Positions 1,538-63,178 are shown, numbered from the stretch's first letter. The stretch is 64,000 bases of DNA from an uncultured virus (IMG/VR IMGVR_UViG_3300025392_000003) (IMGVR_UViG_3300025392_000003); one strand, 5' to 3'. Notes: a model not told the origin generated them from the letters alone. Translations and numbers: made by a program.

Positions 1538-4500
1538 TAGGATTCCTTTTCCTCGTCTTCTTCGCCTGTGGTCCATTGGTTTCCGTAAAATTGATGCCCC
1601 TCGACATCTCCCTTGCTTACTTGCGTTTTGCTTTCTACGGTCGCTTCTAGCGGCCCGCCTAATACGACCATTTCATCTTCACCTAAGCACCCTATACCCG
1701 TTAGGGCGAACGAGAGTATCCGTGATACTGGCACGATTGAGGTAGTCACGAAGCCCTTATCGGTCTTATCAGCACTATTGGCGAAGTAATCGGCGCGCTC
1801 TTTGGTATAGGAGAATGACGATAGTGGGCGTAGTGGCACTTCGGCCTTAGTTGCTTGTTCTGTCCACTTTGGTTCTTTGCCTTGCCCGAATACATAGCCA
1901 CGATAGAGAGTTAGTTCTTTGATTCCCTTATCAGCAAAATACTTCTGTGTTGCGTTGTATTGGGCTCGGAGAAAGGCTTTGTATAGGTCGGTTTCTGGCT
2001 TATCCATAGGGAAAGCATTTGAGTTTGGATTTTGGGCGGCATTTTTGATGCCAAACTCCTTTTCAGCAATCTCTTGTAGATTCCCCGCCTTGTTGTTGGT
2101 GGAAGATGTGGCCCAAGTTCGGATTAGGCGAGAAACGCCCTGTTCTCGTAAGGTGTTGATAATTCGGGGGTCGTTGCCGGGGATACGCTCTGTCTTATTA
2201 AACTCTCGTAGTTTGGCTTGGGAGAGATTGCGTATCTGCTCATTAGCCGAGTCATTGATGTTTTGGTTTTGCTCTTTAGTGCCGCTATTGGATTCGATAA
2301 CTTTGGGGTCGCCCCACTTGTCAACAATCCATACATCGCCTTTGCCGAGTGGTGTGTAGGCGTTGGCTTTTACGCCCCAACCGAAAGTAGCGAATTGTCT
2401 GGTTAGGGCTTGGTCGGCTTTGGGGTTCGCCTCTAGGAACGGAGTTAGTTCTTTGGTGATTTGCTGGGTCACATAGGTCTTGGCTTTGGCGGCGTAGGGC
2501 GAGTAGATAGAAGTTTGGTATTTGGTCGGCACACCGCTATTTGCTTCCGCCATAGGGGTAATGCCGCTAAGTAGTTTTTCGCAGTCTTTGGCTATTTCAG
2601 CACCGAGTTCGCCACCTGTCCATTGGTTTCCCCTAAACGGATGCCCCTCTGATTCGCCCTTTAGAACTCGTGCCTTTGGATTTTCTAGGGCCGCAATTTG
2701 GCGGGCCTGTTCTTCGTTCCACTTCGACCACTTGTTGTCGGGTTCTAGTGACCGACCTAATAGTTGGTGATACGGCTTTGAGTCAGGTATGTATTTAGAT
2801 TGAACTGGCAATCCTCTATCGTTTGCGATTTGTGCAATTTGCTCTTCTATAGCCGTTGCTGCGCCCGGCACTTTCCCTGTTGAGCCCAAATAGCCGACAT
2901 CAACATAGTTTCCGTATTTTTCCGTTTCCTTTACGCTGACGCTCACTACTGCCGCTAGGTTCTTATCCTTGTCTCTAGCAACAAGTAGATAACACTCCTT
3001 GATGTCTGGGTCTTCGTCATAGATTTTCCCCTTTACATCTTTAACTGCCGCACCCATTAGGTCTATACCTAACTGTTGGCGTTTCGGCATACTCTCGTAT
3101 TCTTTTTTCTTTAGTTTGGTGATTTCGTCATTGACTTTTTGGATAGCGGAAGTTCTATAGCCCGATAGAGCCGTTATTCTTCCGCCCGCATCGTAGAACT
3201 CTTTGATGTTCCTTTGGATAAACGAGATTGGTGAATCGCCCTCTCCTGTTTCCCATTGATTACCTCGAAAAGGGTGTCCTGCCGATTCGCCCTTGATTAC
3301 ATCACTTGGCTCGGCAGGTATTGGCTTTGACTCTAGGCCGCTTGGCGATACCTTGTCGTAGGTGTCGCTCATAACTAACTTGCCTCGGTTGAGAATCATC
3401 ACATAGGAGTTGCCGTTCTCTTCTACTTTGGCTGTTAGGGCATCTACGCCCATCATCGCTAGACGTATGTTTTCATCGCCAGCCACAATCGTTTGTGCTG
3501 CTGTCTCGGCTATGTCCTTGAGTTGTGGCTTGCCCGCCGAAAGCATTTCAGCAACGGCGTCTATGTTCTTGAGGATGTCGGCGCTTTTACTCTCTGCGTT
3601 GTTGAGGGCTTTTACGGCCTTGTTGTAATCAAGGACTTTGGAATCTGCTTGGAGTTTGAGTTTCATAACGCCCCCATCAACTTCTCCATTGTGGGCTGAT
3701 GAAGCGTAGTATTGGGCGTTCTCGGCGTTGGTGGTCGAATACCAAGCGCGACCAAAAGCACCCGCCCCGATTTTGACCCCCTTGCCATAGGCGAAGTCGG
3801 CAATCTTGTCTTCGGCTGGTGAACGGTGCGTAGAGATTCCGGTAAAGAGTGGTGGGAGTTTGCTTCGGTATTTGTCGAACTCACTCTGGGATAGAACCTT
3901 TGGTGGTTCGTTGTTCCCAATACGGTCAAAGACCAGATTGGCTAGTTTGAGGTGTCCTCGACCAGATTCAGTCACTCCTGCGTAATCCGCTAGGGTTTTG
4001 GAATTGGCAGCGACTCGTACGAGGTTTTCAGCAAACTTTGGATAATCGCCGTAGCCGAGTTCCTTAGCGATTTCTTTAGCCTTTGCTTCCAACTTCTCGT
4101 ATGAACGACCGTCTGGTGTCGTTCCGCCCATACCGAGGGTGTATTGATTGCCGTGAAATGGGTGGCCCTCGATATCGCCCTTGCTAACGGTGGAAGATTT
4201 TGCCTGTTGGAGAATAAATGCCGCCAATGCCTCTGGCGCTCCCGGTGGTGAGAAAATCATTGGGCGTTTCTCATCCATCATCGCTGGGGTTGCTTCTACG
4301 AGGTGATTATCGTATAGCCCATTGTCTAAAGGCTTTGGCTCTTGCCCCGTAAAGTAATCGGTTAGGTTTGCTGCTTGTGCCTCGTTGATTACGCCACGCC
4401 CATCAAGGAACTTGCCATCACCGATAGATAGAACAAAGTGGTCCACTATCGGGTGGTAGCCACTCTCAACCGCTGCGTTGATGTGGCGAACGCTCGTAGT

Positions 4501-4869
4501 TATTGAGGCCTTGATTTCACCATTAGGGAATAGTTGCTTTAGTGCCTCGGCGGTAGCCAAGCATCCGCCCGTAAGGGCGTTGTTAGGGTAGAAGTCGGAA
4601 ACCTCTTGCGTTCCATAGTTCAGCATCTTTGATGCTGTTCCGATAACTTCGTTTAGTTTTTTCGTGTATTCCTGTGAATCTAGGATTTCGCCAATCTTGT
4701 TTGGGTCAACCCTTGCCCCCTCTAGCGAGCCCTCTTTTCCAAACGAGAACGATGGGTGAACCTGTGCGTGTCCGTTTCCGTCTTGGTATTGGTTGCCGTG
4801 GAATGGATGTCCGTCAACATCGCCTTTGATGATTTCAGCAAACGTCGGGTGGATGGGCAGGACTTCCAT
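1537..4869 (-). CDS. 1110-aa polyvalent protein: papain/transglutaminase-like + degenerate ART-like + GNAT-like + R-S-E ADP-ribosyltransferase modules, separated by five KG[DE]-GHxFxGNQ motifs
   Basis: Module 1 GGC...DHFV...FLDGRG (C-H-D); module 2 LFTG...GAGAFGRAWYSTT..AQYYA...GVDAL...VMILNR; module 3 VDVGYLGSTGKVPGAATAI...SKPYHQLLG; module 4 LYRG...LSSFS...GEDEMVV. Confidence 0.75.
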   Translation of the reverse strand: MEVLPIHPTFAEIIKGDVDGHPFHGNQYQDGNGHAQVHPSFSFGKEGSLEGARVDPNKIGEILDSQEYTKKLNEVIGTASKMLNYGTQEVSDFYPNNALTGGCLATAEALKQLFPNGEIKASITTSVRHINAAVESGYHPIVDHFVLSIGDGKFLDGRGVINEAQAANLTDYFTGQEPKPLDNGLYDNHLVEATPAMMDEKRPMIFSPPGAPEALAAFILQQAKSSTVSKGDIEGHPFHGNQYTLGMGGTTPDGRSYEKLEAKAKEIAKELGYGDYPKFAENLVRVAANSKTLADYAGVTESGRGHLKLANLVFDRIGNNEPPKVLSQSEFDKYRSKLPPLFTGISTHRSPAEDKIADFAYGKGVKIGAGAFGRAWYSTTNAENAQYYASSAHNGEVDGGVMKLKLQADSKVLDYNKAVKALNNAESKSADILKNIDAVAEMLSAGKPQLKDIAETAAQTIVAGDENIRLAMMGVDALTAKVEENGNSYVMILNRGKLVMSDTYDKVSPSGLESKPIPAEPSDVIKGESAGHPFRGNQWETGEGDSPISFIQRNIKEFYDAGGRITALSGYRTSAIQKVNDEITKLKKKEYESMPKRQQLGIDLMGAAVKDVKGKIYDEDPDIKECYLLVARDKDKNLAAVVSVSVKETEKYGNYVDVGYLGSTGKVPGAATAIEEQIAQIANDRGLPVQSKYIPDSKPYHQLLGRSLEPDNKWSKWNEEQARQIAALENPKARVLKGESEGHPFRGNQWTGGELGAEIAKDCEKLLSGITPMAEANSGVPTKYQTSIYSPYAAKAKTYVTQQITKELTPFLEANPKADQALTRQFATFGWGVKANAYTPLGKGDVWIVDKWGDPKVIESNSGTKEQNQNINDSANEQIRNLSQAKLREFNKTERIPGNDPRIINTLREQGVSRLIRTWATSSTNNKAGNLQEIAEKEFGIKNAAQNPNSNAFPMDKPETDLYKAFLRAQYNATQKYFADKGIKELTLYRGYVFGQGKEPKWTEQATKAEVPLRPLSSFSYTKERADYFANSADKTDKGFVTTSIVPVSRILSFALTGIGCLGEDEMVVLGGPLEATVESKTQVSKGDVEGHQFYGNQWTTGEEDEEKES

Positions 4870-4891
4870 AGTCCGTATTCTAGGTCAGGGG

Positions 4892-5167
4892 TTATGAAAT
4901 CCCTGTTAGGTAATCAACAAAACCGTAGAGCCAGCCGAGTATGTCTAGATACAAAGGCGCGCTATCAAAGTTGTCTTCGGGAAATTGCGCCGAGTAGGTG
5001 TTGAGCCAAGTTCTGACTTTGATGTAGACATCGGCCATATCGCTAGACACTTCGTTGTATTTCAGCACCAATACACATTTCGCCCACCACTCAAGGTCGG
5101 TCTTGCTAACCCAAACAGGGTCTATCTCGTATTCGCAAAGCATTGGTAGGTCGGGCAGTAGTGCCAT
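4892..5167 (-). CDS. Hypothetical protein (start uncertain)
   Basis: ORF 4892..5257 in track; its upstream part overlaps a hairpin, so ATG at 5167 is preferred. Confidence 0.4.
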   Translation of the reverse strand: MALLPDLPMLCEYEIDPVWVSKTDLEWWAKCVLVLKYNEVSSDMADVYIKVRTWLNTYSAQFPEDNFDSAPLYLDILGWLYGFVDYLTGIS

Positions 5168-5192
5168 AACGAGAGTCTTCCACAGAAAGCAG

Positions 5193-5230
5193 AAATCCCA
5201 CCGGCCAACAAGAAAAAACCGGTGGGATTT
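5193..5230. other. Perfect 12-bp inverted repeat (hairpin / possible terminator)
   Basis: AAATCCCACCGG (5193-5204) ... CCGGTGGGATTT (5219-5230). Confidence 0.6.
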
Positions 5231-5410
5231 ACGGCGGGTGGGAATGGAGTAAACCACCTACCTGCTGCCAGCGCGCCACCCCAGAGTAAGGACAGGGGCA
5301 TAAGGGTCTGCTTGGTTAATAACAACTACTCGTCAACTCGGCCTAAGACCTAATGCACGAGCGATTGTCGGTATCTATTATACCGAGTCAGTTAAGGGGG
5401 TGGGCGATTT

Positions 5411-6199
5411 TTACGAGAGGTAAGTCATCAAGTCGGAACTTGCCAAATTAGCCTTGTTTGAGGCCGCAATCGCAGATTGAGACTTGGTGGCATCGCCCTT
5501 AGCAACTCCGTGAGCGATAGCCGCTTCGGTGTGGGCGTTCGCCGCTTTGTTCGCTAGGTCACGACCATAGGTGTCGCCCATAGAGCCACGCTCAATAGCA
5601 ATCTTCACTGCTTCGGTTGCGGTGTCGGTGTGTTCCTTAGCCATCTTGTCGTGGTCAACTGGTGGATAAGCGTTGCCAGAAAAATTGTGTGGTGGTGGTG
5701 GTGGTGGTGGTGAGCCAGCGCCGCCGGCGTTTGGGCCTTGTTCTTGGGCTTCTTTTAGAGCGTAAGGAACCATAATCTTCGTGGCGCGGTCAATCGCATC
5801 TATTCGAGCGTGAAGGCGTGGGCTATAAATATCAGTTTGCATATCTGACAAAGCCCTTTGGCTCAAATCATCTCGTTTTGCCTTTAGGTCCTCTAGGTGC
5901 TCCGATAGCGGCTTGGGGTCTTCGGTAATCTTCTTAGCAACATCACGCAGCACTTCAGCAGTGGCCTCGTGTGAAGACTTGCCGTAATAGGTGCCTGTGT
6001 GTCCACGAGTGTCTGTAAAAGATGGGTTTTGGAATCTCGCTTTGCCCTCGTGGAAAGCGGCTTGCTTGTTGAGTTCGTTTACCGCACCAGAGCGATATTG
6101 GTTTCCGTGAAAAGCGTGTCCAGCAACATCGCCTTTCAGGATTTCGCTAGCCTTAGTCCAGTTTGGAACCAGTGCGTCGGTGGAGAAGGGGTTGGTCAT
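5411..6199 (-). CDS. Leader + KGD-GHxFxGNQ motif protein with helical His/Ala cargo and poly-Pro linker
   Basis: MTNPFSTDALV...EILKGDVAGHAFHGNQY (motif 6095-6136); PPPPPPP; AANAHTEAAIAH. Confidence 0.75.
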   Translation of the reverse strand: MTNPFSTDALVPNWTKASEILKGDVAGHAFHGNQYRSGAVNELNKQAAFHEGKARFQNPSFTDTRGHTGTYYGKSSHEATAEVLRDVAKKITEDPKPLSEHLEDLKAKRDDLSQRALSDMQTDIYSPRLHARIDAIDRATKIMVPYALKEAQEQGPNAGGAGSPPPPPPPHNFSGNAYPPVDHDKMAKEHTDTATEAVKIAIERGSMGDTYGRDLANKAANAHTEAAIAHGVAKGDATKSQSAIAASNKANLASSDLMTYLS

Positions 6200-6678
6200 T
6201 ACTTGACCAGAGCCTTCAGTTCAGCCTTCAACGGCGCAGCGCCCTCGCCACGGAAAGTTCCCATATTGGAGAGCAAGTAGTTGACAACGCTCTTGGCACT
6301 GTCAAACATATAGTTGTCTTTGATGTCGTGGAGTTGCTTTAGTGCGTCTAGGTATGGTTTGGCGGTATAGTGAACGCCATTCTTGCTGTTCGTATTCCAA
6401 ACCTTTTCGATGTCACGAGCAATCTCGTTCAACGGACGATGCCCAGAGGGGGTGAGATTTCCACCACCGCCCTCTCCAGCCTCGTACTGGTTCCCGTGGA
6501 AATCGTGTCCTTTGACATCGCCTTTAGCGACGGCTTTTTTTCCACCACACTTAGGGCAAGTGACGTGACCGCCACGGATTTTGCCCGTCCCCTTACAAAG
6601 GGGGCATTTATCGCCCTTTACAACAGAGTAAATACCCTGTCCTTTGAGTAGTGCGTCAGAAGAGAACGAGTTTGACAT
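6199..6678 (-). CDS. Leader + DnaJ-type Zn finger + KGD-GHxFxGNQ motif + phage-type helical domain
   Basis: Start reassigned to ATG 6678 (AAAGGAA RBS); MSNSFSSDALLKGQGIYSVVKGD-KCPLCKGTG...CPKCGG; motif 6484-6525; RPLNEIARDI...AKPYLDAL...FRGEGA..LKAELKAL. Confidence 0.75.
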   Translation of the reverse strand: MSNSFSSDALLKGQGIYSVVKGDKCPLCKGTGKIRGGHVTCPKCGGKKAVAKGDVKGHDFHGNQYEAGEGGGGNLTPSGHRPLNEIARDIEKVWNTNSKNGVHYTAKPYLDALKQLHDIKDNYMFDSAKSVVNYLLSNMGTFRGEGAAPLKAELKALVK

Positions 6679-6688
6679 TTTGGTTCCT

Positions 6689-6997
6689 TTAGATTTCAGC
6701 AATCGCTAGAGTTGCGCCAGCGGTCGAACTAATTGCACAAACTGCCCCGGTGTAAGTCGTAAACTGAATCTGTGCGTTTGGTTGTAGCGGAATACCCTTA
6801 CCGACTGATGCGCCACTTGCGGCGAGGTAGAGGTAGATAACGGCAGAAGAGTGGGTGTTGGTAATCCACGCCTGAAAACGAGTGGTGTTGGCGGGGATAA
6901 CCGAATAGACCGTGTTAGCCGTAGTGAGGGTGAGGTTCGAGCCGGGGTTAAATGCGACTGACTGCTGATATGACTCAACGATTTGGGGGTGTGGCAC
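6689..6997 (-). CDS. Small beta-rich hypothetical protein (possibly virion-associated)
   Basis: GTG start with AGGAG RBS; R...ITN....IYL...GIPLQP pattern. Confidence 0.6.
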   Translation of the reverse strand: MPHPQIVESYQQSVAFNPGSNLTLTTANTVYSVIPANTTRFQAWITNTHSSAVIYLYLAASGASVGKGIPLQPNAQIQFTTYTGAVCAISSTAGATLAIAEI

Positions 6998-7040
6998 TTG
7001 GCTCTCCTAAAGGTCTAAGACGAAAAAATATTACCCCACG

Positions 7041-7085
7041 AAAAGAAAAAAGCCCCCACCGACCCGATTTGGGCCGATAGGGGCG
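7041..7085 (-). terminator. Rho-independent terminator
   Basis: Minus strand GCCCCTATCGGCCC-AAATC-GGGTCGGTGGGGGC followed by TTTTTTCTTTT. Confidence 0.75.
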
Positions 7086-7101
7086 TGATTCTTGTTGGTG
7101 A

Positions 7102-7296
7102 CTACTGGTTCGTCAACTTGGGGCGAACGGCAATCAGGTATGGAACTGCTGCGAAGATGCCAAACAAGAACATCAAAACGAGCCAACCGGCCTTTGATTT
7201 CTGAACGGCATTCCACTTGCTCTGGTGCTGTAGGCAAGCATCGATAAACGAGCCAATAGCAACTACGGCAACAAACAAAATAATCAATGTTGACAT
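7102..7296 (-). CDS. Small two-TM membrane protein, DUF2516/PLDc_N-like
   Basis: Two hydrophobic segments flanking DA...W.AVQKSKAGWLV; PYL...RPKL ending. Confidence 0.6.
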   Translation of the reverse strand: MSTLIILFVAVVAIGSFIDACLQHQSKWNAVQKSKAGWLVLMFLFGIFAAVPYLIAVRPKLTNQ

Positions 7297-7333
7297 TTTT
7301 GTTCCTTTCTTTCTTTTCTCTAATTGAGACTTA

Positions 7334-7774
7334 TTACCAACGGTTGTTGTCGAACTTCATACGGGCAGTGACCTTGCCCTCGGCAGCGGTCAAAGTGTGG
7401 ACAGCGTTGGTAAACGCCGTGACCGAGCCGTTTCCGTTGATTACGGCTTCACCGGTGTTGACCAAAGTTGAGAGAGCGATAGCAACATCACTCATATCAA
7501 AGTTGAGGGTCATATCGGGTGAATTAGCGTGGCTATTGAACGCACGGGCATCGCTGGCTAGAGCGTTAAAGTCGGCGTTGCCTTGAGCGATACTGGCATT
7601 GGTGTTGATGTCAATCGCCAACTGCTGATAGTCACGGTAGCACTTGGATACGACAGGCAAAGTCCTTTGCTTCCAAGCCGCATACTGACTTGCCTTGCTC
7701 GCACCCGCCGTAGCGATTGGCAAAGCAACTGAAATCGCAATCGCAGCAATCGCTGCTTTCTTGATGATGTTCAT
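7334..7774 (-). CDS. Secreted helical protein (paralog of 19334..19870)
   Basis: Signal peptide MNIIKKAAIAAIAISVALPIATAGA; AAGGAG RBS; TATAGT -10 upstream. Confidence 0.7.
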   Translation of the reverse strand: MNIIKKAAIAAIAISVALPIATAGASKASQYAAWKQRTLPVVSKCYRDYQQLAIDINTNASIAQGNADFNALASDARAFNSHANSPDMTLNFDMSDVAIALSTLVNTGEAVINGNGSVTAFTNAVHTLTAAEGKVTARMKFDNNRW

Positions 7775-7848
7775 TTTGTCTCCTTGTTAGGTTGGATACA
7801 ACTATAGCAAGGTTGAGTGGTGAAAGCCAGTTTTCTTGCTAGTTATTT

Positions 7849-8562
7849 CTAGTTGTTTCCGCGCCACTCGGTAAGGGCTTCTACATACTTTTTGTAGAGG
7901 TCTTCTGGTGTTCCGTCATTGTAAAGAACAATGTCTTGGTCGGAGTAGGCCGTTTCCGAAATATGGGTGTTTGTCGGCTCGTAGCCACTACGGAAGATAC
8001 GAACGATTACGCCGCCACGCTTTTTGATTGCTTCGGCTTCGTTTGGAAAACGGACATCGGGGATAACAACTTTTTCGTGCTTTACATTGTCGAAAGTCGC
8101 TCGAATCCAAACATCATCAGAGATGAATTGGCGAGCCCCGTCAGTTCCGAGTCGCTGTAGTAGTTGGCGGATTTCGGGGTATTCCACTTTCGCTCGTTCC
8201 CAGCCAATCGTATTTACAATCTGCTGAATCCTTACGGTGCGAGCCAAGCCTGAACCGTCACGCTCAATCGTCGGGTTCATCGCATACAAGATATTTCGCA
8301 TTGGGTCGGCTAGTGCTGTTCGGAAGAACCCCTCGCGCTCTACGAGTTGGTTAGCGAGAGTGTCTTTTCCTGATTGGGCGAAGCCACAGATTCCGACAAA
8401 GGTTTGGTTGGTCTTTGGTTCTGCCCAATCAGCACCCCAAGTTTTTATTTCGGGGGTCGTACAAAATCGCTGCTCGGCGTGTTGCCAAACAGGTTTGCTG
8501 GTTAGGTGTAGCGGTTGGCGACAGTTCGCACAAACGCCGTGTCCGTAGATAAGGCTAACCAC
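7849..8562 (-). CDS. Deoxynucleoside monophosphate kinase with N-terminal Cys/His extension
   Basis: GICGFAQSGKDT P-loop, ALADPMR, RQLLQRLGT, VVIPDVRFPNEAEAI, HISE; start GTG 8562 inferred. Confidence 0.85.
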   Translation of the reverse strand: MVSLIYGHGVCANCRQPLHLTSKPVWQHAEQRFCTTPEIKTWGADWAEPKTNQTFVGICGFAQSGKDTLANQLVEREGFFRTALADPMRNILYAMNPTIERDGSGLARTVRIQQIVNTIGWERAKVEYPEIRQLLQRLGTDGARQFISDDVWIRATFDNVKHEKVVIPDVRFPNEAEAIKKRGGVIVRIFRSGYEPTNTHISETAYSDQDIVLYNDGTPEDLYKKYVEALTEWRGNN

Positions 8563-8563
8563 G

Positions 8564-8767
8564 CTAACTCTTATCGCTAGCGGAATAACTAGCCGTGAGC
8601 AAACGGAGTAGCGCACCGGGGGCTAGTGAAGTGGTGAATCCCATAGTTGGGATTGAGTGATTCCAATGGTGTAGGTCGCCCACGAAAAGCATCATCACGA
8701 AGCCACCGCCGAGCGCGTAAAGACATAGGACAACGGCAAAGGCGATTAGGTAAGACAAAACTTTCAC
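8564..8767 (-). CDS. Small membrane protein
   Basis: Hydrophobic N-terminal half; AGGAG RBS. Confidence 0.55.
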   Translation of the reverse strand: MKVLSYLIAFAVVLCLYALGGGFVMMLFVGDLHHWNHSIPTMGFTTSLAPGALLRLLTASYSASDKS

Positions 8768-8792
8768 GGTATCTCCTAGTTCGGTAGGAACC

Positions 8793-9275: not shown

Positions 9276-9307
9276 CCAAACACTTTAGCATAGTTTAGCG
9301 AATTGGG

Positions 9308-10507: not shown

Positions 10508-10652
10508 AGTGCTTACAGACTACTACGGCGTTTTGCTAAAGGTTATGTAGAGCCTCGTAAGGTGTGGAGCCGTAGGCACGAGAACTTGCTATAGAAGCGG
10601 CCTGTGATGCCTCTTCCGAAAGACCGACATTTGTGCCGGGGGTTTTGCCGTT

Positions 10653-13121: not shown

Positions 13122-13199
13122 AGTCTTACAATCTTACTAGGGTTTAGTAAGGCGTAAGTGTATTTACTTAGACTCTCGGTCGTGGGGCGAAGTCAAGAA

Positions 13200-13904: not shown

Positions 13905-13953
13905 ACAAAGTCCTTTCGGTCTAAGTAAAGACTACATTAGGATTTACAAAACC

Positions 13954-14211: not shown

Positions 14212-14329
14212 TAGTTCTCTTTCCTCTAGGGGTGTGGGGTCTAGTGTAGTGAGGTTTATCTTATCGTGCTATATCAAAACGCTTATTTTTAGAACAGCGT
14301 CATAGCGCCCCGACTTTGGAAAAGCGGGC

Positions 14330-50290: not shown

Positions 50291-50311
50291 AAAGACCACT
50301 CTAGTCTTTTT

Positions 50312-54200: not shown

Positions 54201-57200
54201 CCTGAGTAGCGGCTACTGAAAAAGTAAGCGACCCTGTTCCAATTGTTGTTGAGGTAGATGAGGTGACACCCGAATAGCCTGTGCCTTGGAAACCCTGATT
54301 ACCTTGGTTGCCCTGAGAACCCGTTGTTCCCTGCGTTCCTTGGTTGCCTTGGAATCCTTGATTACCTTGACTTCCTGTAGTTCCCTGATTACCCTGATAG
54401 CCCTGAGCGCCCTGCGAGCCGGTGGAACCTTGTGAGCCAGTTGAACCCTGTGTGCCTTGGAAACCTTGTGAACCCTGTGACCCCGTAGAACCCTGATTAC
54501 CTTGGTTTCCTTGCGCACCCTGCGCACCAGTGGAACCCTGCGCACCTGTAGCACCCGTAGAACCTTGTGACCCTGTTGCGCCAGTAGAACCCGTTGTTCC
54601 CTGATTTCCTTGATTACCCTGATACCCTTGCGAGCCCGTTGTTCCTTGGAAGCCTTGACTTCCTTGAGCGCCGGTAGAACCCTGAACGCCTTGATACCCT
54701 TGACTTCCTTGTGCGCCAGTGCTACCTTGCGAACCAGTTGCCCCTTGGAACCCTTGGTTTCCCTGTGAGCCTGTAGTGCCTTGCACGCCTTGGTTTCCTT
54801 GCGAACCAGTAGAACCTTGCGCACCCGTGTTGCCCTGCGAGCCAGTCTGACCTTGGAAGCCCTGCGGTCCTTGTGAACCAGTTGCGCCCTGACTTCCGGT
54901 AGCACCTGTAGAACCCTGCGAACCTGTTGCGCCAATAGAACCCTGCGTTCCCTGATACCCTTGCGAGCCTTGAGCACCAGTACTTCCTTGCGAACCCTGC
55001 GAGCCAGTTTGACCTTGATACCCCTGTGACCCTTGCGAACCAATGGAGCCTTGAGAACCTGTTTGACCTTGTGTTCCCTGATACCCCTGTGAACCCGTGC
55101 TTCCTTGCGAACCGGTTGCCCCCTGATACCCCTGATTTCCCTGTGTGCCAGCAACACCCTGAAAACCCTGATTTCCTTGGTATCCCTGTGAGCCTAGAAC
55201 TCCCTGAAAACCCTGTGTTCCTTGAGTTCCCTGACTACCCTGAAATCCTTGATACCCCTGAAGACCTTGATATGTGATTTGTTGTGCCGTAAAGATTACG
55301 CCCGGCGTTGCTGGAACCGTTGGGCTTGTTTGTGCTGCGGTTGTGGTGATAGCGATAGTTGTGCTTGATACCGCCCACGCCAACTGAACATAATCACCAG
55401 CGTTTACATTGACTAGGTAGTTGATGGCTGCGATAAGTGCGCCAGAGCCACCGTGACTTGTGCCGGGAACATTGTAAATTGAGTTTGTTTCAGCGACATC
55501 TGAACCATTTTTGCGTAGCCACACATCAACATTGTCCGAGTTGCTATCCGAGTTGGTGAACTGAATTGAGTATTGGATGTTGTATGTGCCAGCATAACTA
55601 AAGGTGACTTGGTTGCCACTAACGATAGAAATGCCGTAGTTTCCGCTTGTGGTGTTTATGCCAACTACATAGGCGGTTGTAGTTGATGAGGCGGTTTGGG
55701 TCGTAGTGTCGTATGCTGAAATGTAAGGGGCGACCACTCCACCAGCACCCTGAACTCCCTGATATCCCTGCGCACCTATACCTGCGGTTTCGGTAAAAGT
55801 GATTGCATCGGTCCCGATACGAATAGAGGCGTCTGGGTTTGAGCCGTTGCCATACTGAACCCAAGTGGTGTTTCCGTAAAGCGTTCCGTTTGTAATAAAG
55901 GAGTAGTCGCCGCTAATCACCTGTAGGGCTATGTGGTTGTCATAGTCGGTGGCACGAGTGAATGAATACTTGCTTGTTGGCGAACCGAGGCTAGTGACCG
56001 TGTAGATTCCGTTTTCGATATTGTTTGTGCGGCCTGTAAAGAGGATTCTGTCTCCAACCGAGAGGCTCACGCCATCAATAGCGCCCAAAGCACCGTTAGC
56101 CGTTGCTGTGATAGTCGCACCGACACCTGTTCCGTTTTCAGCATCCGCCGAACCTGCCGCATAAGTTGCGGGCAAGTTGTTGGTATAGACGACCTTTACT
56201 GCTGGGTGAGCGTTGGCTGTGCTAGTAGCGCCCTGCGTTCCTTGATTACCTTGATAACCTTGTGCTCCTTGGGAACCAGTCGCACCTTGGGAACCAGTTG
56301 AACCCTGCGAGCCTGTTGCTCCTTGGAAGCCTTGACTTCCCTGTGAGCCTGTAGAACCTTGTGCGCCAGTGCTTCCTTGTGCACCTGTGGCACCTTGGAA
56401 ACCCTGACTACCAGTTGCTCCAATAGCGCCCTGAGAGCCAGTCAGACCTTGTGTACCCTGAGTTCCCTGTACGCCTTGATTACCTTGCGGGCCGACAACG
56501 CCAGCAACCCCGAATGTCCAAGAGGTGAATGTTCCAGAACCAGACGTTGTGTCAACACTAACTGTTATTGATGTATTGGCGGAGGTGATTGTTCCTTCAA
56601 CCCAGTTGCTTGCGCTATTGGCAACACGGACACGTGTACCAACCGAAAATGCTTGAGTATTAGATACTGCCCAAGTGAGTGCGCCTGTTCCAATCGTCAC
56701 CGACGAGGTTGAGGTGACGCCTGCATAGCCAGAACCTTGGTACCCCTGCGTTCCTTGAGCGCCAGTTGCGCCTTGGCTCCCTTGAGTACCTTGCGCTCCC
56801 TGAACTCCTTGGAAACCTTGATTGCCCTGAAAGCCTTGCGCTCCTGTAGCGCCCTGTGAACCTGTAGCGCCTTGATAACCCTGTGAGCCTTGGGAACCTT
56901 GCGCACCAGTACTTCCCTGTGCGCCCGTAGACCCTTGAACACCCTGCGTTCCTTGGAACCCCTGCGTTCCTTGACTACCTTGACTTCCCTGCGAACCTGT
57001 GTTGCCCTGAAAGCCTTGGCTACCTTGTGAGCCGGTAGAACCTTGGAAACCCTGATTGCCTTGCGTTCCTTGTGAGCCTGTAGAGCCTTGTGTTCCCTGA
57101 CTACCCGTTGAGCCTTGCGTTCCTTGATTTCCTTGGAAGCCCTGCGAACCCTGACTACCCTGAGAACCAGTAGCACCAGTTGAGCCTTGCGCGCCAGTTG

Positions 57201-59688
57201 AGCCTTGGCTACCCGTAGCACCTTGATAACCTTGCGCCCCTTGGCTACCCGTGGAACCTTGGAAACCCTGCGCTCCTTGTGAACCGTTTGTTCCAGTATT
57301 TCCTTGACTACCTTGATAGCCTTGTGCGCCCTGAGAACCTGTCGCACCTTGACTTCCGGTGGAACCTTGGTATCCCTGTGACCCCTGTGCGCCTGTCGTG
57401 CCTTGATTACCTTGGTTGCCTTGGTATCCCTGACTGCCTTGTGACCCGACAGCACCTTGCGCACCAGTCGCACCGATTACACCTTGGTATCCCTGATTAC
57501 CTTGACTGCCTTGACTACCTGTTTGACCTTGCGTGCCTTGGTAGCCCTGATTTCCCTGTGAACCCGTAGCACCGGTGTTCCCCTGATTCCCCTGACTGCC
57601 CTGTGCGCCAGTGGAACCCTGTGAGCCAGTATTTCCTTGACTTCCTTGATAGCCCTGCGAACCTTGAGTTCCGTTAGTTCCTGCTGAACCCTGCGAACCC
57701 TGATACCCCTGTGTTCCCTGTGAGCCGTTCGTTCCAGCCGTTCCTTGATTACCTTGGTATCCTTGCGAACCTTGCTGACCAACAACAGTCGTGTATGTTA
57801 GGCCAGTTCCTGCGGAGTTCACCACTAGGGCTTGGCCCTGCGTTCCGATAGTGTTCAGGCCTGTTCCGCCGTTAGAAGTTGGCAGAGTTCCCGATACCCC
57901 AGTAGTTAGGGAGACATTGGTGATTGTGTTGTTCGCACCAGAAATTGTTTTGTTAGTTAGTGTTGCGGGAATCGTATTGGATACGATTGTGTCGCTTCCC
58001 GTAGTGGAAGCGGGTAGGTAGAAAGTTTGGTTGTTGGAACCACTATTAAAACCCACACTCGCGCTATAGCCGTTTCCAGCGCCATCAACGAAAGTTAGTG
58101 CGTTCCCAGAGGCTCCATTGTTGGTTATAATTCCAGCATTAAAAGTCGCTGATGATGGACCGCCGAAACTTGGTGCATTGGATAATACGACAGCCCCAGT
58201 TCCGGTTTCTTGGTAGGGGGAAGAATACCAAGTGCCGCTCTCGTAGGTGAGTGTCACGGACATACCAGAGGTGACGGTAATAGAGTTGGTGGTGGTGGCG
58301 ATGCCACCCTGAACCAAACTAATTACATCGCTACTTCCACTAGCGCGTTGGATATTTCTATTTCCGCCAGTGGTGTAGTTAGCAACTATGTTTGTCGTTC
58401 CGTTTGCCGGTGCGTTCGGCAACTGGATAGTCATTACATTGCTGCCGGTGAGGATGCTGTATTCGCCAGCCGAGACAGAGATAGTGCCAGAGGCCGTTCT
58501 TAGAGTTGCTGATGGGGCAGTTCCGGCTACGCCCTGATAACCTTGACTTCCCTGCGAACCCGTGCTTCCTTGACTGCCAATTTGACCCTGAAAGCCTTGA
58601 TTGCCCTGAAAGCCTTGGTTTCCCTGTGCGCCTTGACTTCCCTGTGACCCCTGATAGCCCTGTGGTCCTTGTGGGCCGGTATCACCTTTAGGGCCGGTGC
58701 TTCCTGTCGTTCCCTGCGACCCGGTGCTACCTTGACTTCCCTGAAATCCTTGCGAACCCTGATATCCCTGCTGACCGACAACGGTTGTGTAGGTGAGCGC
58801 CGTTCCCGCGTTATTTACAACGAGTGCTTGGCCTGCTGTTCCGATAGAACTAAGACCAGTTCCACCACTAGAAGTCGGCACGATACCAGTAAGGGCAAAG
58901 GTAAGTGTTCCGTGTCCATACGAAACGCTGATTGGGTCTGAACCTTGCATTGACTGGATAACCGATACCCAGTTGCCTGCTGAACCTGTGGCCTCAACGA
59001 CTCCGAGCCAATATGCGTTTGGGGCTAGGAAGATAGGTGAGCCAGCCGTGCCTAAGTCAATAGTCTGCGTGGAAAGGTTTGGATAAACAGCAAGAGAATA
59101 CGAAGAGTTGTTGTTGTCAATATAGATAAATTGACCGGTCGCAGCGATAGGTGGAAGCGTGACCGATTGACCCGAAGCGGTGGGATTTACTTGGTTGTAT
59201 TGACCAGTAAGAGTGGGGTTTGAGGTCGGGGTGACTGATGAGTAGTTGTAGGCCTGACTCGTTCCGCCGTTCGGGAAAAGGGTAGAGATAACGCTAGTGA
59301 TAGCCGAGAAGTCTGTGCCACCTATGAATGGGAAGCAGTTGTTGATGCCGCCGTTTGGGGCGTGTGCTGAAATAGGAGTGCCATCCCAGCCACGACCGTT
59401 GAGCGTTCCGTCTGTCCAAATCGTGACTACGCCAGTTGAGGGGTTGACCGCCGAGCAGAGAATGTGCTCTTCGGTGGATAATCCAAAGTCCACGACGACC
59501 GTAAAAACGCCGCTAGTTCCCAAAGGATTGCTAGTGTCTTGGCCGTTCGTGCCTACTTCTAGCCAACTAGTTGCTGAAAAGAGCGTAAAAGTTGTTTCTG
59601 CGTAGGAACTAGAGAGGCTCGTGGTTATGTATGTAGGCTTTGCCGAACCGGGAACCGAGCGTTTGGATGTCGCAGAGGGGTAGGCCAT
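51262..59688 (-). CDS. 2808-aa collagen-like (Gly-X-Gln) fibre protein
   Basis: Six tracts of [18 protein letters not shown] triplets interrupted by globular modules, some duplicated. Confidence 0.85.
52995..58775 (-). repeat. 9-bp-period coding repeats (Gly-X-Gln tracts)
   Basis: Plus-strand CCTTG/CCCTG periodicity at approx. 52995-53135, 53580-54035, 54280-55270, 56225-56490, 56730-57780, 58527-58775. Confidence 0.85.
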
Positions 59689-59725
59689 AGCGACATTCTA
59701 CGCCCAGATTTGGAAAATCTAGGGG

Positions 59726-60196
59726 TTAGAAACCGTAGCGAGCCTTAAGGCTATCTGTGCCTTGCGCCCTATCGATAATCAGCAAACCGTTGAGATGGTC
59801 AACTTCGTGCTGGAAGATTCGAGCCAGCAAACCAGTCGCCTCAATCTCTATGTCGTTTCCGTTTAAGTCCAAACCCGTGAGGTGGCAACTTATGGCGCGC
59901 TCTACGTGGGAACGATTGTTGGGAACGGATAGACAGCCCTCTAGACCCAAAGCCATTTCAGCACCGAGGGATAGTTTGGGATTTACGACCACCGAGTAGT
60001 TCCCCGATAGTTCCTCGTCATAGACAAAGACACGCTTCGTGATACCAATCTGGTTGGCCGCCAGACCTACGCCGTTATTGGCATACATCACCTCGGCCAT
60101 AGTTTGAGCAAGCAGGGCAATACCCTTGTCAATGTCCGTGACTTCTCTAGCCTCTAGAGCAAGAACGGCATCTGGGTAGTGTCTTAGGCTAAACAT
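59726..60196 (-). CDS. def: Peptide deformylase
   Basis: All three PDF motifs: GVGLAANQIG, EGCLS, QHEVDHLNG; start 60196 or 60214. Confidence 0.93.
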   Translation of the reverse strand: MFSLRHYPDAVLALEAREVTDIDKGIALLAQTMAEVMYANNGVGLAANQIGITKRVFVYDEELSGNYSVVVNPKLSLGAEMALGLEGCLSVPNNRSHVERAISCHLTGLDLNGNDIEIEATGLLARIFQHEVDHLNGLLIIDRAQGTDSLKARYGF

Positions 60197-60197
60197 T

Positions 60198-60335
60198 TCA
60201 GCACTCGCAATCATCGCAGTCGCAGCCCTTTACGACATAACTCTCGGAGTCATCTAGCGTGGTAGCCACATTCTTGACCTTGCCATAAACCGATACGAGT
60301 CGGGGCGTGAGTTCCTTAAAACTAGGGTGATTCAT
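60198..60335 (-). CDS. 45-aa ORF with Cys-rich tail (below ORF-track cutoff)
   Basis: MNHPSFKELTPRLVSVYGKVKNVATTLDDSESYVVKGCDCDDCEC*; fills the gap between DUF1003 and def. Confidence 0.5.
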   Translation of the reverse strand: MNHPSFKELTPRLVSVYGKVKNVATTLDDSESYVVKGCDCDDCEC

Positions 60336-60342
60336 AACGCTT

Positions 60343-60861
60343 CTAAGCCTCTGGTTTTGGGTCATCTGTAGCCTTTGCTCTATTTAGTAGAGAGTGTAGT
60401 TCAGCCACGACTTCGTGAATGGCTTTTGTAGCCTCTGTATTTGCCTTGAGTTCTTTTTCCAAACGCCGAATAATCTCGCTGCTTGTTTTGGAAATAGTGA
60501 GGTGAGAAAGGGCTTGCTCGGCGGCTACGGCATCTGCTCGTTTGGCCGCAATCAGCAGGATTGCCCCTTGTAAGCCCGCCAACATAGAAAGGAATAGGTT
60601 GAGCAGGATAAACGGATAGGGGTCAAATCCCTTGTTGTTGAGCCAGAAGATATTGACTCCGGCCCATATCAGCATAAAGATAACGAATAGGGTCACAAAG
60701 CCCCACGAACCCATCTTGTTTCTAACGGCATCAGCGGCCTTTTCGCCACGAGTTAGTTCCGAGCCTGTGCGAACGCCGGGTAGCGGTGTCCAAGGGTTAT
60801 TGGGGTCGAACCACGCTTCGCTCTCCACGCCGTCTGTCCAATCGATTTCTATCTCGTTCAT
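60343..60861 (-). CDS. DUF1003 membrane protein
   Basis: AD....MGSW.F...FDPYPFILLNLFLSMLAGLQGAILL; start at ATGA overlap 60861. Confidence 0.85.
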   Translation of the reverse strand: MNEIEIDWTDGVESEAWFDPNNPWTPLPGVRTGSELTRGEKAADAVRNKMGSWGFVTLFVIFMLIWAGVNIFWLNNKGFDPYPFILLNLFLSMLAGLQGAILLIAAKRADAVAAEQALSHLTISKTSSEIIRRLEKELKANTEATKAIHEVVAELHSLLNRAKATDDPKPEA

Positions 60862-61241
60862 TTCAGCACCTCGGCACGAGTGACAATCTGAACTCCGTTG
60901 AGTTCCTCTAGGGAGATAGGGCGATGCTTGTGATACTGAAAGATTTTCTTTCCAGTCGCCACAGCCGTAGCAACCTCTACTTTCGCACCTTCCGAGCGAG
61001 CCCAACCGGGCAATACAACGATTCCATCAGAATCAAGGATGGTGGAAAGAAAGACTCGCATCTTGTCCTGAACCCACTCTTTCGTCACGGGTGTCGTTGG
61101 CTCGTAGCCATCTAATAAGGCGTGTTCAGCAGGGCAGAAGATTTCGTGACCCTCTTTGCGGATACGCTCGCGCGCCTCGGCAAAAGCAGGGTAGTTGTGT
61201 TCGGGAAGACCCGTCATTGGGCCAGCAAGGTAGAACTTCAT
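60858..61241 (-). CDS. DUF4406 / nucleoside 2-deoxyribosyltransferase-like protein
   Basis: YLAGPMTGLPEHNYPAF, D.IVVLPGW..SEGA..E. Confidence 0.8.
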   Translation of the reverse strand: MKFYLAGPMTGLPEHNYPAFAEARERIRKEGHEIFCPAEHALLDGYEPTTPVTKEWVQDKMRVFLSTILDSDGIVVLPGWARSEGAKVEVATAVATGKKIFQYHKHRPISLEELNGVQIVTRAEVLK

Positions 61242-62482
61242 CAGATAATCAGCAAGTCGCCCCAGCCACGCTTGCCATAAGCGTCGCCAACACAGAAAGT
61301 CAACATACCGGCAGGAGAGCCCTTACCGCTTGTATCCGTAAACCACTTAGAGCCACCGTCTTGAGCAGGGCATTGGAAGCAAGTGCGACCTGTTCCCTCT
61401 GATGCTATGTAGTGGTGGAAGTGGCCGCTGACATAGATATCCGATTCAGCAGCCTTTGTGCGGCCTCTAATCTGCCCCAGAATCCACGACTCAATCTTGG
61501 CGATAGTTCCGCCACCCGAACCCTTACCGAACTGGTGTCCGTGAGCCAGAGTGACCAACTTGCCACACACATTGAGGGTCATAGTCAGGTCTTCTTCAAT
61601 CAAACCCTCGAATTGTGGGAACGATACATTTCCAAAACGACTTGGGTTTGCGGCACAGATTTCAGCGACGCCCTCGAAGACGGCCAAATCCATATTATCT
61701 GTCCAAGTTGTATAAGCCTTCCCATTGAGCCTATTCTCTCCGTGGTTTCCCGGCACGGCGGCAACAACGAGAGGAATCTCTGGGAAGTTCTCAACACAGA
61801 GTTCCACGAAACGAAGAATCAAACGCCGAGCAACTTTCTGCTGTTCGCGCGAATCTAAATCAACGGAGAAAGTCTGCATCGCATAGTGGTTCGAGCAATT
61901 TTCTACTAAATCTCCCATTCCGCAGCAATAGATAACGGATGGCGCACGACCGATGGTGATTAGTTCACGAATACGCTCGATAGATTCATCTTGAGAAGTG
62001 ATGATACGAGCGGCCGTTGCTTCACTACCGCCCCCTTCCGATTTTCCTATCTGCCAGTCAGAAAAAAACGCCATAAAAGCGCGCGCATCTTTGGTCGCCT
62101 TTTTCTTCGGCTTCTTGACAGCGGGGCGTTTCATAATCTCTTTACAGAGAGCCTCAATATCGGCTCTGTCGCCCTTTTCACCACGACGCCTAATCTGTGC
62201 TCGGTAGTAGCGCATCTTGGCGATTTCGCCGTTGCCTACATTGGTATCCCACGCTCTAATGTGGACCGAACCATCAACGATTTCGGTTAGGTTTGGGTCT
62301 AAGCCCCAATCCTCAATCACCATATCCCAAAGTGCTTGGTCGGGTTCTGCTTCGGTTGGTGGGCTATCTATGTAGCCTTTCTCGCCATCCCAACGAATCT
62401 CTCGCTCATAACCTTTTGCTACAGAAGCACGGCGAGCGGCCTCACGCCTTTCGGCTTCCTTTTCAGCAGACTCAAACGACAT
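61241..62482 (-). CDS. Calcineurin-like metallophosphoesterase (Mre11-like phage family)
   Basis: SDWQIGK, MGDLVE, PGNHGE, AHGHQ, SGHFHH. Confidence 0.85.
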   Translation of the reverse strand: MSFESAEKEAERREAARRASVAKGYEREIRWDGEKGYIDSPPTEAEPDQALWDMVIEDWGLDPNLTEIVDGSVHIRAWDTNVGNGEIAKMRYYRAQIRRRGEKGDRADIEALCKEIMKRPAVKKPKKKATKDARAFMAFFSDWQIGKSEGGGSEATAARIITSQDESIERIRELITIGRAPSVIYCCGMGDLVENCSNHYAMQTFSVDLDSREQQKVARRLILRFVELCVENFPEIPLVVAAVPGNHGENRLNGKAYTTWTDNMDLAVFEGVAEICAANPSRFGNVSFPQFEGLIEEDLTMTLNVCGKLVTLAHGHQFGKGSGGGTIAKIESWILGQIRGRTKAAESDIYVSGHFHHYIASEGTGRTCFQCPAQDGGSKWFTDTSGKGSPAGMLTFCVGDAYGKRGWGDLLII

Positions 62483-62723
62483 AAAGCCCCTTGAACTCTG
62501 TTCCTGCTGGGCAGTGGCATTGACCCTTTAGGTGGCTACCTAGAGTCTTGTCGTTGGTGCGCTTGCCATCAGCAGTCGCAACACGAGCAATCCAACCAAC
62601 GGGCTTGCGTTCCTCAAACCATTTTGCAATAGTTTCTTTATCGGATTTGTCTAGTGAATCAATAAAATCCACAAAACGACAGGTGCGCTCCGACAGACGC
62701 TTCTCTGCTTCTTTGAGTGACAT
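62472..62723 (-). CDS. Small hypothetical protein coupled to the phosphoesterase
   Basis: C.....LD..D...H.KGQC.C; leaderless TACCAT promoter. Confidence 0.6.
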   Translation of the reverse strand: MSLKEAEKRLSERTCRFVDFIDSLDKSDKETIAKWFEERKPVGWIARVATADGKRTNDKTLGSHLKGQCHCPAGTEFKGLYVV

Positions 62724-62758
62724 AGAGAAATGGTATCACCACTTCTCGTAAAAAAGAA

Positions 62759-63178
62759 CTACTTTTCGCTCGTTTTTTTGGGCGCGATTTTGGTCGGAGA
62801 AGTCTTCTTCTTGGCCGTAGTGGACTTCTTGGCTGGGCCAGACTTCTTCACGGGCGTAGTCTTTTCAGCAGCCTCTAGAGTCTTGCCTTGAGCCTTTTTT
62901 ACTATCGGCTTAGGAGAAATAGCCTCAACGACATCGTGGACAATCTCTTCCGTCTTCTCAACTACTGCCTTAGCGATTTCAGCGGCCTCTCGCTCGGCTA
63001 GTGCCGCATAGTGGGCTACGACTCTAGGCTCTAGTTTCTCAACCCAGCCACGAGCCTCTACATAAATCTTGCCTTGCCAAGTCCAGTCGTCTGAAGAAAC
63101 GAGTTGACCGCGCTCAAGCGTGACCCCATCCAATGGAAAGCCACGAATAACTCTGTGTGTGTATCGCTTAGATGCCAT
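62759..63178 (-). CDS. Hypothetical protein with Lys/Thr/Pro-rich tail
   Basis: KKSGPAKKSTTAKKKTSP; leaderless TATCAT promoter. Confidence 0.6.
   Translation of the reverse strand: MASKRYTHRVIRGFPLDGVTLERGQLVSSDDWTWQGKIYVEARGWVEKLEPRVVAHYAALAEREAAEIAKAVVEKTEEIVHDVVEAISPKPIVKKAQGKTLEAAEKTTPVKKSGPAKKSTTAKKKTSPTKIAPKKTSEK

Follow-up and report, generated by a model that had tools for sequence, protein, structure and literature searches.

What maintains one and the same eight-base word about once per kilobase in a viral genome? The question is raised by a stretch of 64,000 nucleotides from an uncultured virus (IMG/VR IMGVR_UViG_3300025392_000003), here called the window, in which TGCTGAAA is the commonest octamer. 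A first-pass annotation had interpreted this word as a genome-wide binding or modification site. Our analysis indicates that TGCTGAAA is a positively selected, direction-sensitive signal of a double-stranded actinophage genome of ~125 kb. The reading that we favor, tentatively, is that of a Chi-like signal for an enzyme that degrades DNA from its ends.

Abundance of the octamer

Exact matching retrieves 66 copies of TGCTGAAA in the window, 28 on the plus and 38 on the minus strand, which agrees with the initial estimate of about 66 copies on both strands and with every position listed for them. Dinucleotide-preserving shuffles of the window (n = 100) contain 2.65 copies on average (standard deviation 1.81, maximum 7). 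Codon-preserving shuffles, of which 300 were made per scheme and in which the four fixed non-coding and junction copies are counted in every total, yield a mean of 10.1 (maximum 18) if synonymous codons are permuted within genes, 8.4 (maximum 15) if they are permuted in a common pool and 6.7 (maximum 12) if the order of codons is permuted inside genes. The first-pass annotation had regarded a reproduction of the count by such shuffles as fatal to its proposal; with means of 6.7–10.1 and no value above 18 against 66 real copies, this objection falls. Peptides whose codons permit the word likewise occur at roughly double the chance frequency (shuffle means 10.1 versus 6.7), and 62 of the 134 synonymously possible places in the window proteins spell TGCTGAAA.

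The window represents half of the genome. An IMG/VR contig of 75,270 bp (G012) matches both window ends with 97–99% identity in reverse orientation; it joins positions 1 and 64000, and the map is therefore circular with a length of ~124,751 bp. On this composite of ~124.8 kb the octamer occurs 130 times, i.e. about once per kb, whereas an order-3 Markov model predicts 6.1 copies (z 46, rank 1 among 21,339 octamers) and 100 synonymous shuffles give 19.3 (z 33, top among all octamers). A control word with swapped halves has seven copies, so that TGCTGAAA lies ~18-fold above it, and 124 of 263 protein-permitted places are realized. The word is thus short, non-palindromic and over-represented relative to composition, as is demanded of a Chi sequence. 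Several one-base neighbors are also in excess over synonymous shuffles of the composite, namely TGGTGAAA (41 versus 13.5 expected) as well as TGCTGAAT and TGCTGATN (29–32 versus ~5). These data support the view that TGCTGAAA is a DNA-level site under selection and not a single amino-acid motif, and the selection acts at silent sites and beyond.

Reading frames, flanks and spacing

The 66 open reading frames (ORFs) called in the window, nearly all of them on the minus strand, cover ~94.5% of its length. The window copies fall into the following classes:

Sense, xxT GCT GAA Axx: 27 copies
Sense, xTG CTG AAA: 6 copies
Antisense, xTT TCA GCA: 20 copies
Antisense, xxT TTC AGC: 7 copies
Antisense, TTT CAG CA: 2 copies
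Non-coding: three intergenic copies (15222, 41875, 44101) and one at a gene junction (45722)

The early impression that the word is read in several frames and also occurs between genes, and hence does not reflect one amino-acid motif, is borne out by the use of five reading frames; the sixth would read a TGA stop. On the composite, 64 of the 130 copies share the single frame T|GCT|GAA|A, 46 are distributed over three antisense frames and seven are non-coding. Since 7% of the genome is non-coding, the latter figure reveals no preference for intergenic positions.

The edges of the word are sharp in the window, except that T is preferred at position +1 and almost missing at +2. The composite exhibits the same pattern, with T at +1 in 68 of 130 copies, G at +1 in 10 and T at +2 in seven. 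These preferences are alike in every frame class and in both orientations, which indicates a signal of about 10 bases that resides in the DNA. The fuller site is TGCTGAAA followed by a non-G and then a non-T base, and close variants such as TGGTGAAA count too.

Only one gap below 100 bp separates neighboring copies on the composite, compared with 12.7 expected. Even spacing was considered and rejected, because the coefficient of variation (1.07–1.11) resembles that of random placement and close pairs alone are depleted. The longest gap in the window (6.2 kb, 49556–55714) falls within the gene of a collagen-like fiber and the genes just before it. Nine of the 34 genes of at least 900 nt harbor no copy, among them both N6/N4 methyltransferases, the amidoligase, a glycosyltransferase and the endolysin; accessory, cassette-like genes lack TGCTGAAA.

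Strand polarity

The orientation of the copies is not uniform along the window:

2061..14891, minus strand (main coding strand): 14 copies, unipolar and all in sense frames, at 2061, 2595, 3546, 4026, 4833, 5060, 6694, 8873, 9844, 10190, 10483, 11928, 12131 and 14884
15109..25141, both strands: 14 mixed copies in the replication and early region, on plus at 15109, 16288, 18315, 19962 and 21380, on minus at 15222, 16222, 19217, 19654, 20214, 20343, 24025, 24945 and 25134
28985..37835, plus strand: 11 copies, at 28985, 29540, 30266, 30584, 31094, 31279, 33653, 34298, 36019, 37663 and 37828
38205..62870, both strands: 27 mixed copies in the structural genes and the right part, on plus at 40008, 41875, 43276, 44484, 44642, 44842, 46932, 48144, 48852, 55714, 59365 and 59572, on minus at 38205, 40941, 41657, 44101, 45722, 47423, 47663, 47843, 49556, 56136, 59956, 60196, 60861, 62461 and 62863

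The composite has a strand split of 88:42. A run of 23 consecutive same-strand copies extends over positions 49,110–81,500, which correspond to window position 14,891 down to 2,061 and past the left end (permutation P 0.002), and the opposite-orientation run of 11 copies in the giant tail genes (window 28,985–37,835) has a permutation P of 0.0002. The claim of the first-pass annotation that the word, unlike Chi, is not strand-polarized is contradicted by this split and by both runs. Seen by composite region, the copies lie mostly on the minus strand of the composite at 15–36 kb and all on its plus strand at 49–81 kb. The unipolar block spans the replication module through both terminase genes:

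1..594, minus strand: terminase small subunit (terS; phrog_4102, E 8.6e-31), located centrally in the unipolar run, cut off by the window's left end and continued in G012
20421–21236, minus strand: replication-initiation protein (phrog_270, E 5.8e-26)
21365–22285, minus strand: Sak4-like annealing ATPase (phrog_1366, E 3.7e-82; AAA_24)
L187:10357–11930 (G012), 6 kb from terS: terL, split into two overlapping ORFs for an ATPase part of 316 aa and a nuclease part of 209 aa

The unipolar run has the replication module (20421..22285) at its upstream edge. Between terL and terS there are small genes as well as those of a methyltransferase and a PD-(D/E)XK nuclease.

Coding constraint was separated from strand preference by counting the possible sites per strand, with the following use of possible places:

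Whole genome: main strand 84 of 141, other strand 40 of 122
Composite 49–80 kb: main strand 22 of 37, other strand 0 of 18
Tail domain: main strand 6 of 6 (sense), other strand 19 of 45 (antisense)

The plus-strand run at 28985–37835 is antisense to the two giant tail genes (28445–35173 and 35182–38751), and 10 of its 11 copies occupy the frame xTT TCA GCA. This opposite run appears to be a second-best solution forced by the proteins. In minority-strand genes, 10 of 20 antisense places are used and 4 of 16 sense places, which shows that the DNA strand matters and not the transcript.

Conservation and dialects in related phages

Near-identical contigs carry TGCTGAAA as expected. A more distant relative, G003 (71–84% nucleotide identity), contains 15 copies within 12.5 kb, and 14 of these share one strand. 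Six of its seven aligned sites and six of the window's 10 are conserved, compared with a background conservation of 9–10% for an 8-mer at ~72% identity; the positions kept include window 15109, 16222 and 20214 and two copies further left. G003 is devoid of the window's methyltransferase segment (16.3–18.2 kb), and its alignment jumps from window position 16237 to 18199. Another relative, G002 (GC 0.58, ~70% identity), has 22 copies over 42 kb, and their orientation follows the same pattern by region. The word persists in relatives across a GC range of 0.50–0.58.

A query with the portal protein recovered 79 loci. Lineages with a portal identity of 87–100% contain TGCTGAAA at about one copy per kb, and those at 70–84% have related top words instead, i.e. 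TAGTGAAA(T), TGGTGAAA(TC) and others. No excess of TGCTGAAA was found in relatives with a portal identity of at most 58% or a Sak4-like identity of at most 49%. The three large relatives G466, G467 and G470 are enriched for the set T[GA][CG]TGAAA in lineage-specific proportions, with further variants in G466. The latter measures 121,340 bp within a range of 113–121 kb for the relatives, is flagged with direct terminal repeats and exhibits a near-unipolar block from terL to a ParB-like gene that resembles the block of the present phage; in G470, 140 of 152 copies lie on the coding strand. The fate of orthologous sites was followed in alignments. Of 15 sites aligned in G467, two are identical, four read TGGTGAAA, one reads TAGTGAAA and the rest are lost. 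G466 retains three identical sites and one CAGTGAAA among 12, and G470 two identical sites and three variants among 13, the rest being lost in both. Orthologous sites are swapped for the local dialect or lost, and accordingly the sites turn over while their density is kept. Switches from Ala to Gly between lineages occur at word sites. Enrichment in relatives and in the host had been suggested as a check at the outset: the relatives comply, as their dialects and the conservation in G003 document, but nothing comparable emerged from 481 Actinomycetota genomes.

A double-word scan of IMG/VR for unrelated phages that share TGCTGAAA returned at least 118 loci; it was uninformative, and among the matches listed there were only weak cases with 0.2–0.3 copies per kb. 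Five distant or unrelated IMG/VR phage contigs (L014, L033, L038, L181 and L279) have strongly repeated words of their own that are longer and single-stranded, namely, with the counts on both strands, AGGGTAGG (14/0), AACAGCGG (16/0), GGCAGCCC (1/16), ATAAGAGC (2/19) and AGCAGTTC (15/0).

Search for a host-side signal

The 481 genomes comprise 401 evenly drawn Actinomycetota and the 80-genome family of G071, which together represent a small share of the phylum. The pooled tallies over the 401 genomes include 15 that are flagged as unpublished, none of which is named here. No genome in this sample has an excess of TGCTGAAA comparable to the phage, and the maximum of 0.25 copies per kb is found in a family with a GC content of 0.38. 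An apparent 10–40 fold enrichment over the reversed word, seen in 80 of 80 genomes of the family and in many genomes of the sample, was rejected, because the reversed word contains CpG, these genomes have a GC content of 0.38 and the order-3 observed/expected ratio is only 1.3–1.75 in the three genomes examined at sequence level, so that composition accounts for most of the density. The values of these three genomes are:

G071: 59 copies observed, 33.8 expected (order 3), rank 72
G414: 51 copies observed in 400 kb (33 on plus, 18 on minus), 38.5 expected, rank 1826
G253: 65 copies observed, 50.0 expected, rank 1138

The control with swapped halves gave an enrichment of at most 2.7-fold in 41 genomes (39 motif-rich genomes of the sample, G071 and G414). 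Members of this family have genomes of 1.1–2.7 Mb with a GC content of 0.38, a strong GC skew and ~80–90% of the coding sequence on one strand per contig. The word tracks the G-rich strand there (43 versus 16 copies in eight contigs of G071). Given that the observed/expected ratio of the Escherichia coli Chi is itself only ~2.3 according to PMC3784561, and given the small sample of the phylum, the host test has little power.

The phage offers few clues to a particular host. No tRNA was found in its genome, and there was no DNA match in the phage collection. Protein matches in isolated phages are just 40–48% identical and scattered over phages of Mycobacterium, Arthrobacter, Pseudomonas and Roseobacter. 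The peptide deformylase yielded no lineage from the protein atlas and at most 50% identity across the 401 genomes, and a search of the genome contigs for WhiB produced one Streptomyces match and one doubtful match. The literature was searched for this word only once, with the octamer and its complement as whole words, and the one paper retrieved was unrelated.

Gene content of the phage

Pfam and PHROGs hits of the window proteins are those of a siphovirus-type phage. The structural hits of the window comprise the terminase small subunit, the major head protein, a tail tube, a tape measure and giant tail proteins, and those for replication and DNA processing a replication initiator, a helicase loader, the Sak4-like ATPase, an SNF2 helicase, RusA, a Mu Gam-like protein and an exonuclease. 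Further hits concern a tandem ParB-N protein, a dNMP kinase, a peptide deformylase and an N6/N4 methyltransferase. The second half of the genome encodes the portal, the endolysin, a single-stranded DNA-binding protein (SSB) and additional nucleases and methyltransferases. It also harbors two WhiB genes, both above the Pfam cut-off; the WhiB family is known from actinobacteria and their phages, and its presence points to an actinobacterial host. The recombination set consists of the Sak4-like ATPase, exonucleases (phrog_284, PDDEXK_1/Cas4-like, RNase_T), SSB, RusA and the Mu Gam-like protein, and neither a phage DNA polymerase nor a primase was recognized in the Pfam and PHROGs annotation of the genome. 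Candidate DNA-binding readers are the tandem ParB-N protein (ParB_N x2), HTH_24, LexA_DNA_bind and the helix-turn-helix (HTH) of terS. Genes of the modification type are two N6_N4 methyltransferases and a C5 methyltransferase with three additional ORFs for C-terminal parts, and at least six ORFs are methyltransferase-like. Further individual genes are listed below:

1540–4869, minus strand: protein of 1110 aa with an ADP-ribosyltransferase-like end (DRAT-like domain, E 3.8e-06, just above the cut-off)
13203–13904, minus strand: pentapeptide-repeat protein (E 1.2e-44) of the early region
16413..17669, plus strand: N6/N4 DNA methyltransferase (PF01555, E 9.9e-36) without TGCTGAAA inside
23993..24592, plus strand: Mu Gam-like DNA-end-binding protein (PF07352, E 1.1e-16; phrog_2205, E 4.6e-32)
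51265–59688, minus strand: collagen-like tail fiber of 2808 aa with 16 collagen-repeat stretches
59729–60214, minus strand: peptide deformylase (E 4.5e-45), among structural genes
L189:13009–17253: protein of 1415 aa with an ADP-ribosyltransferase-like end (weak ADPrib_exo_Tox match, below the cut-off)
L187:15256–17090 and L188:5321–5755 (G012), minority strand: amidoligase, class-II glutamine amidotransferase and gamma-glutamyl cyclotransferase
L189:18193–19068, L193:59–1108 and L190:385–1192 (G012 58193–61195): split C5 methyltransferase ORFs

The C5 methyltransferase ORF represents the N-terminal catalytic part only, and the match of each of the three ORFs behind it is limited to the C-terminal end of the family. 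Together they may encode a split methyltransferase of multiple specificity, the target-recognition parts of which are interchangeable. A dCMP deaminase-like gene, the dNMP kinase, a phosphatase and glycosyltransferases are located near the amidoligase set, and this neighborhood may constitute a pathway for a metabolite or for base modification. Repeated words such as CCTTGACTTCC and CAAGGTAATCA stem from the gene of the collagen-like fiber. On the composite, a second family of over-represented words comprises TTTGGAAA/TTTCCAAA (91 versus 30.6 in synonymous shuffles), GTTTGGAA (83 versus 28.3) and AGTTTGGA. This family (e.g. TTCCAA with 157 copies in the window) is not confined to the collagen-like gene and is also enriched in G002, G466 and G467.

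Interpretation of the signal

Many spread copies, asymmetry, preference for a DNA strand, a unipolar block, absence from accessory genes and dialects are the properties of a signal that is met by a traveling, direction-sensitive enzyme. We consider it possible, with the reservations given below, that TGCTGAAA is a Chi-like signal. In this scenario a helicase-nuclease, either a host enzyme of the RecBCD, AddAB or AdnAB type or, less likely, one made by the phage, would enter at a DNA end and meet TGCTGAAA on the strand that ends 3' at the entered end. It would then stop degrading and start recombination. About one copy per kb would shield an injected or cut genome and a rolling-circle tail and would aid the formation of packageable concatemers. 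We infer that the unipolar block beside the terminase genes marks the end at which the enzyme enters. An enzyme that enters at terS would be able to read the block in its present orientation, provided that the packaging site is located there, since Chi is read from the 3' side. The avoidance of close pairs fits sites that act singly and at a distance. The "protection mark", which the first-pass annotation had listed among its options, comes close to this interpretation.

Several observations weigh against it. The 42 opposite-strand copies are also far above chance, and since coding constraint accounts for most of the run in the tail genes, functional polarity does not underlie the whole regional pattern. 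The match of orientation with the presumed physical genome ends is post hoc. Moreover, the phage carries its own recombination genes, two or three exonucleases included, and the Mu Gam-like end binder, and lambdoid phages with recombinases and RecBCD inhibitors are described to avoid Chi (PMC3784561; PMC12315714). No Chi is known for the actinobacterial AdnAB, an enzyme for which independence from Chi has been proposed (PMC5314763). The host survey adds, as weak evidence, the lack of an excess comparable to that of the phage. To a related interpretation we assign a rather small probability: a direction-sensitive enzyme encoded by the phage would read a family-specific "self" tag with evolving dialects, which are TGCTGAAA in the present phage and TGGTGAAA or [TC]AGTGAAA in its sister lineages. 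The reader of such a tag would perhaps be found among the unannotated large proteins or the helicase and nuclease genes; it would spare the phage's own DNA and destroy untagged linear DNA such as the host chromosome or competing phages. This would be Chi-like logic owned by the virus and not borrowed from the host. In a less radical version, an end-processing nuclease of actinobacteria would have been found, through its phage, to possess a Chi-type signal, the first one of this kind.

A phage-encoded DNA-binding protein could use the word as a binding or loading site in order to organize, coat, compact or mark the genome, with many sites keeping it covered, and the tandem ParB-N protein, a winged-helix/LexA-like HTH protein, terS and an unannotated protein are candidates whose genes are present, as far as annotated. 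The restriction of the excess to this phage family (none at a portal identity of 58% or less or a Sak4-like identity of 49% or less), its persistence in relatives from GC 0.50 to 0.58, the lack of host-type enrichment in the 481 genomes and the different dialects of sister lineages, as expected from co-evolution of reader and word, agree with such a protein. However, a binder of duplex DNA explains neither the polarity nor the use of 0 of 18 places on one strand over 31 kb; close pairs are avoided (1 versus 12.7) instead of forming cooperative arrays, ParB-type sites are normally palindromic and few, and no candidate was tied to the word by the tests run. We regard this explanation as less likely than the Chi-like one, but as a serious rival. 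A guide for replication or translocation, i.e. a site for lagging-strand priming or a helicase or a KOPS-like FtsK signal that is co-oriented with forks from an origin near the replication genes, is unlikely. It would account for the flip of orientation around the replication and early region, a pattern displayed by leading-strand words on both sides of an origin, and for a word that follows the DNA strand in minority-strand genes; the mean spacing of ~1 kb is similar in magnitude to bacterial Okazaki fragments, and with no phage DNA polymerase or primase recognized, the host machinery would be used. It is at odds with a GC skew that has no matching switch, with a second switch only ~35 kb from the putative origin on one side and 90 kb on the other, with the coding constraint behind most of the opposite run in the tail genes and with the nearly unipolar genome of G470 (140 of 152 copies throughout), and we know of neither octamer-specific priming nor a use of KOPS by phages.

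Even less probable is a target of sequence-specific DNA modification made by the phage and kept as a mark for protection or packaging. The genome is rich in suitable genes (methyltransferases, dNMP kinase, dCMP deaminase, amidoligase, GATase, glycosyltransferases), and the methylation targets of Type I, IIG and III systems are asymmetric like TGCTGAAA, but a target need not be over-represented and nothing selects for more of it. G003 keeps 15 copies in 12.5 kb without the methyltransferase segment of the window, although other methyltransferases are present elsewhere in the genome studied here. From the initial proposal of a binding or modification site we thus retain a selected site at the DNA level, whereas a methyltransferase target is disfavored by G003 and by the lack of copies in either N6/N4 gene. 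The least credible explanation denies any function and regards the word as a side effect of preferred codon pairs or of mutation that is biased by context. Its appeal stems from the 64 of 130 copies in the frame T|GCT|GAA|A, from dialects that read as small-residue codons ending in T (GCT, GGT, AGT, ACT) followed by GAA and from low-GC actinobacterial genomes, in which TGCTGAAA is common via codon usage. This functionless bias is already close to refuted: 46 copies lie in three antisense frames and seven are non-coding, the flank preferences agree among all frames, synonymous shuffles give 19.3 against 130 copies, the conservation in G003 (6 of 7 and 6 of 10) contrasts with a background of ~10%, and the polarity follows the DNA strand and not the gene.

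If the word is Chi-like, as we tentatively favor, it would be the first candidate Chi sequence for Actinomycetota. The Chi response of AdnAB and RecBCD in this phylum is an open question (PMC5314763), for which the phage would provide a test substrate and natural dialects for specificity. A reader encoded by the phage would represent a new kind of self-marking. In either case, a DNA word prescribes about 1% of the 125 kb of this phage genome, and does so with enough force to alter amino acids, in Ala-Glu and Ser-Ala contexts. TGCTGAAA could furthermore serve as a marker for the prediction of hosts or lineages.

Comparison with known systems

Other dispersed words share some of these features. 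DNA uptake sequences (DUS of Neisseriaceae, USS of Pasteurellaceae) also occur about once per kb, mostly in genes and in frames that the proteins tolerate, with lineage dialects and sharp edges. They are non-polar words of host chromosomes and driven by transformation, whereas the excess of TGCTGAAA was found in a phage and not in the 481 actinobacterial genomes searched, its strands are split 88:42 with runs of 23 and 11, and we know of no link to competence. The stoperators of cluster A mycobacteriophages (L5) resemble it as asymmetric sites that are dispersed in and between actinophage genes with an orientation bias. However, stoperators measure 13–14 bp, number a few dozen per genome, are oriented with transcription and are bound by the phage repressor; the present genome has 130 copies of a word of 8–10 bp that are oriented by DNA strand (10 antisense versus four sense copies in minority-strand genes), without a link to a repressor. 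The "architecture imparting" octamers KOPS and SRS are likewise asymmetric and form orientation domains that switch near replication genes, but they are chromosomal guides for FtsK or SpoIIIE, and no host excess of TGCTGAAA was found in the genomes searched here.

The closest described case is the hoarding of Chi by phages. According to PMC12315714, phage LLS has 23 Chi sites, one per 1.86 kb, of which 20 are in the active orientation and half lie in its genome's rightmost 22%; phage P1 has 50, one per 1.9 kb, and Chi is the commonest octamer in both. The likeness of these and of lambdoid phages without a Rec module to the present phage consists in a non-palindromic top octamer at about one copy per 1–2 kb (PMC12315714; PMC3784561), most copies pointing one way, an oriented block between replication and packaging genes and frequent one-base variants. 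PMC8022716 adds that Chi is richer in core than in acquired DNA and that the Haemophilus influenzae Chi, GNTGGTGG or G(G/C)TGGAGG, is degenerate too. In contrast, TGCTGAAA is no known Chi, its density is about twice that of LLS and P1 and is maintained over 125 kb, and a third of its copies are reversed. A phage of the LLS/P1 class would be expected to have no recombination module or RecBCD inhibitor of its own, whereas the genome analyzed here encodes recombination genes and a Mu Gam-like protein, a class of genes that goes along with Chi avoidance in lambdoids. A hoarded polar octamer in a phage is thus already known; new are the word itself, the host phylum, the density, the dialects throughout a phage family and the coexistence with a recombination module.

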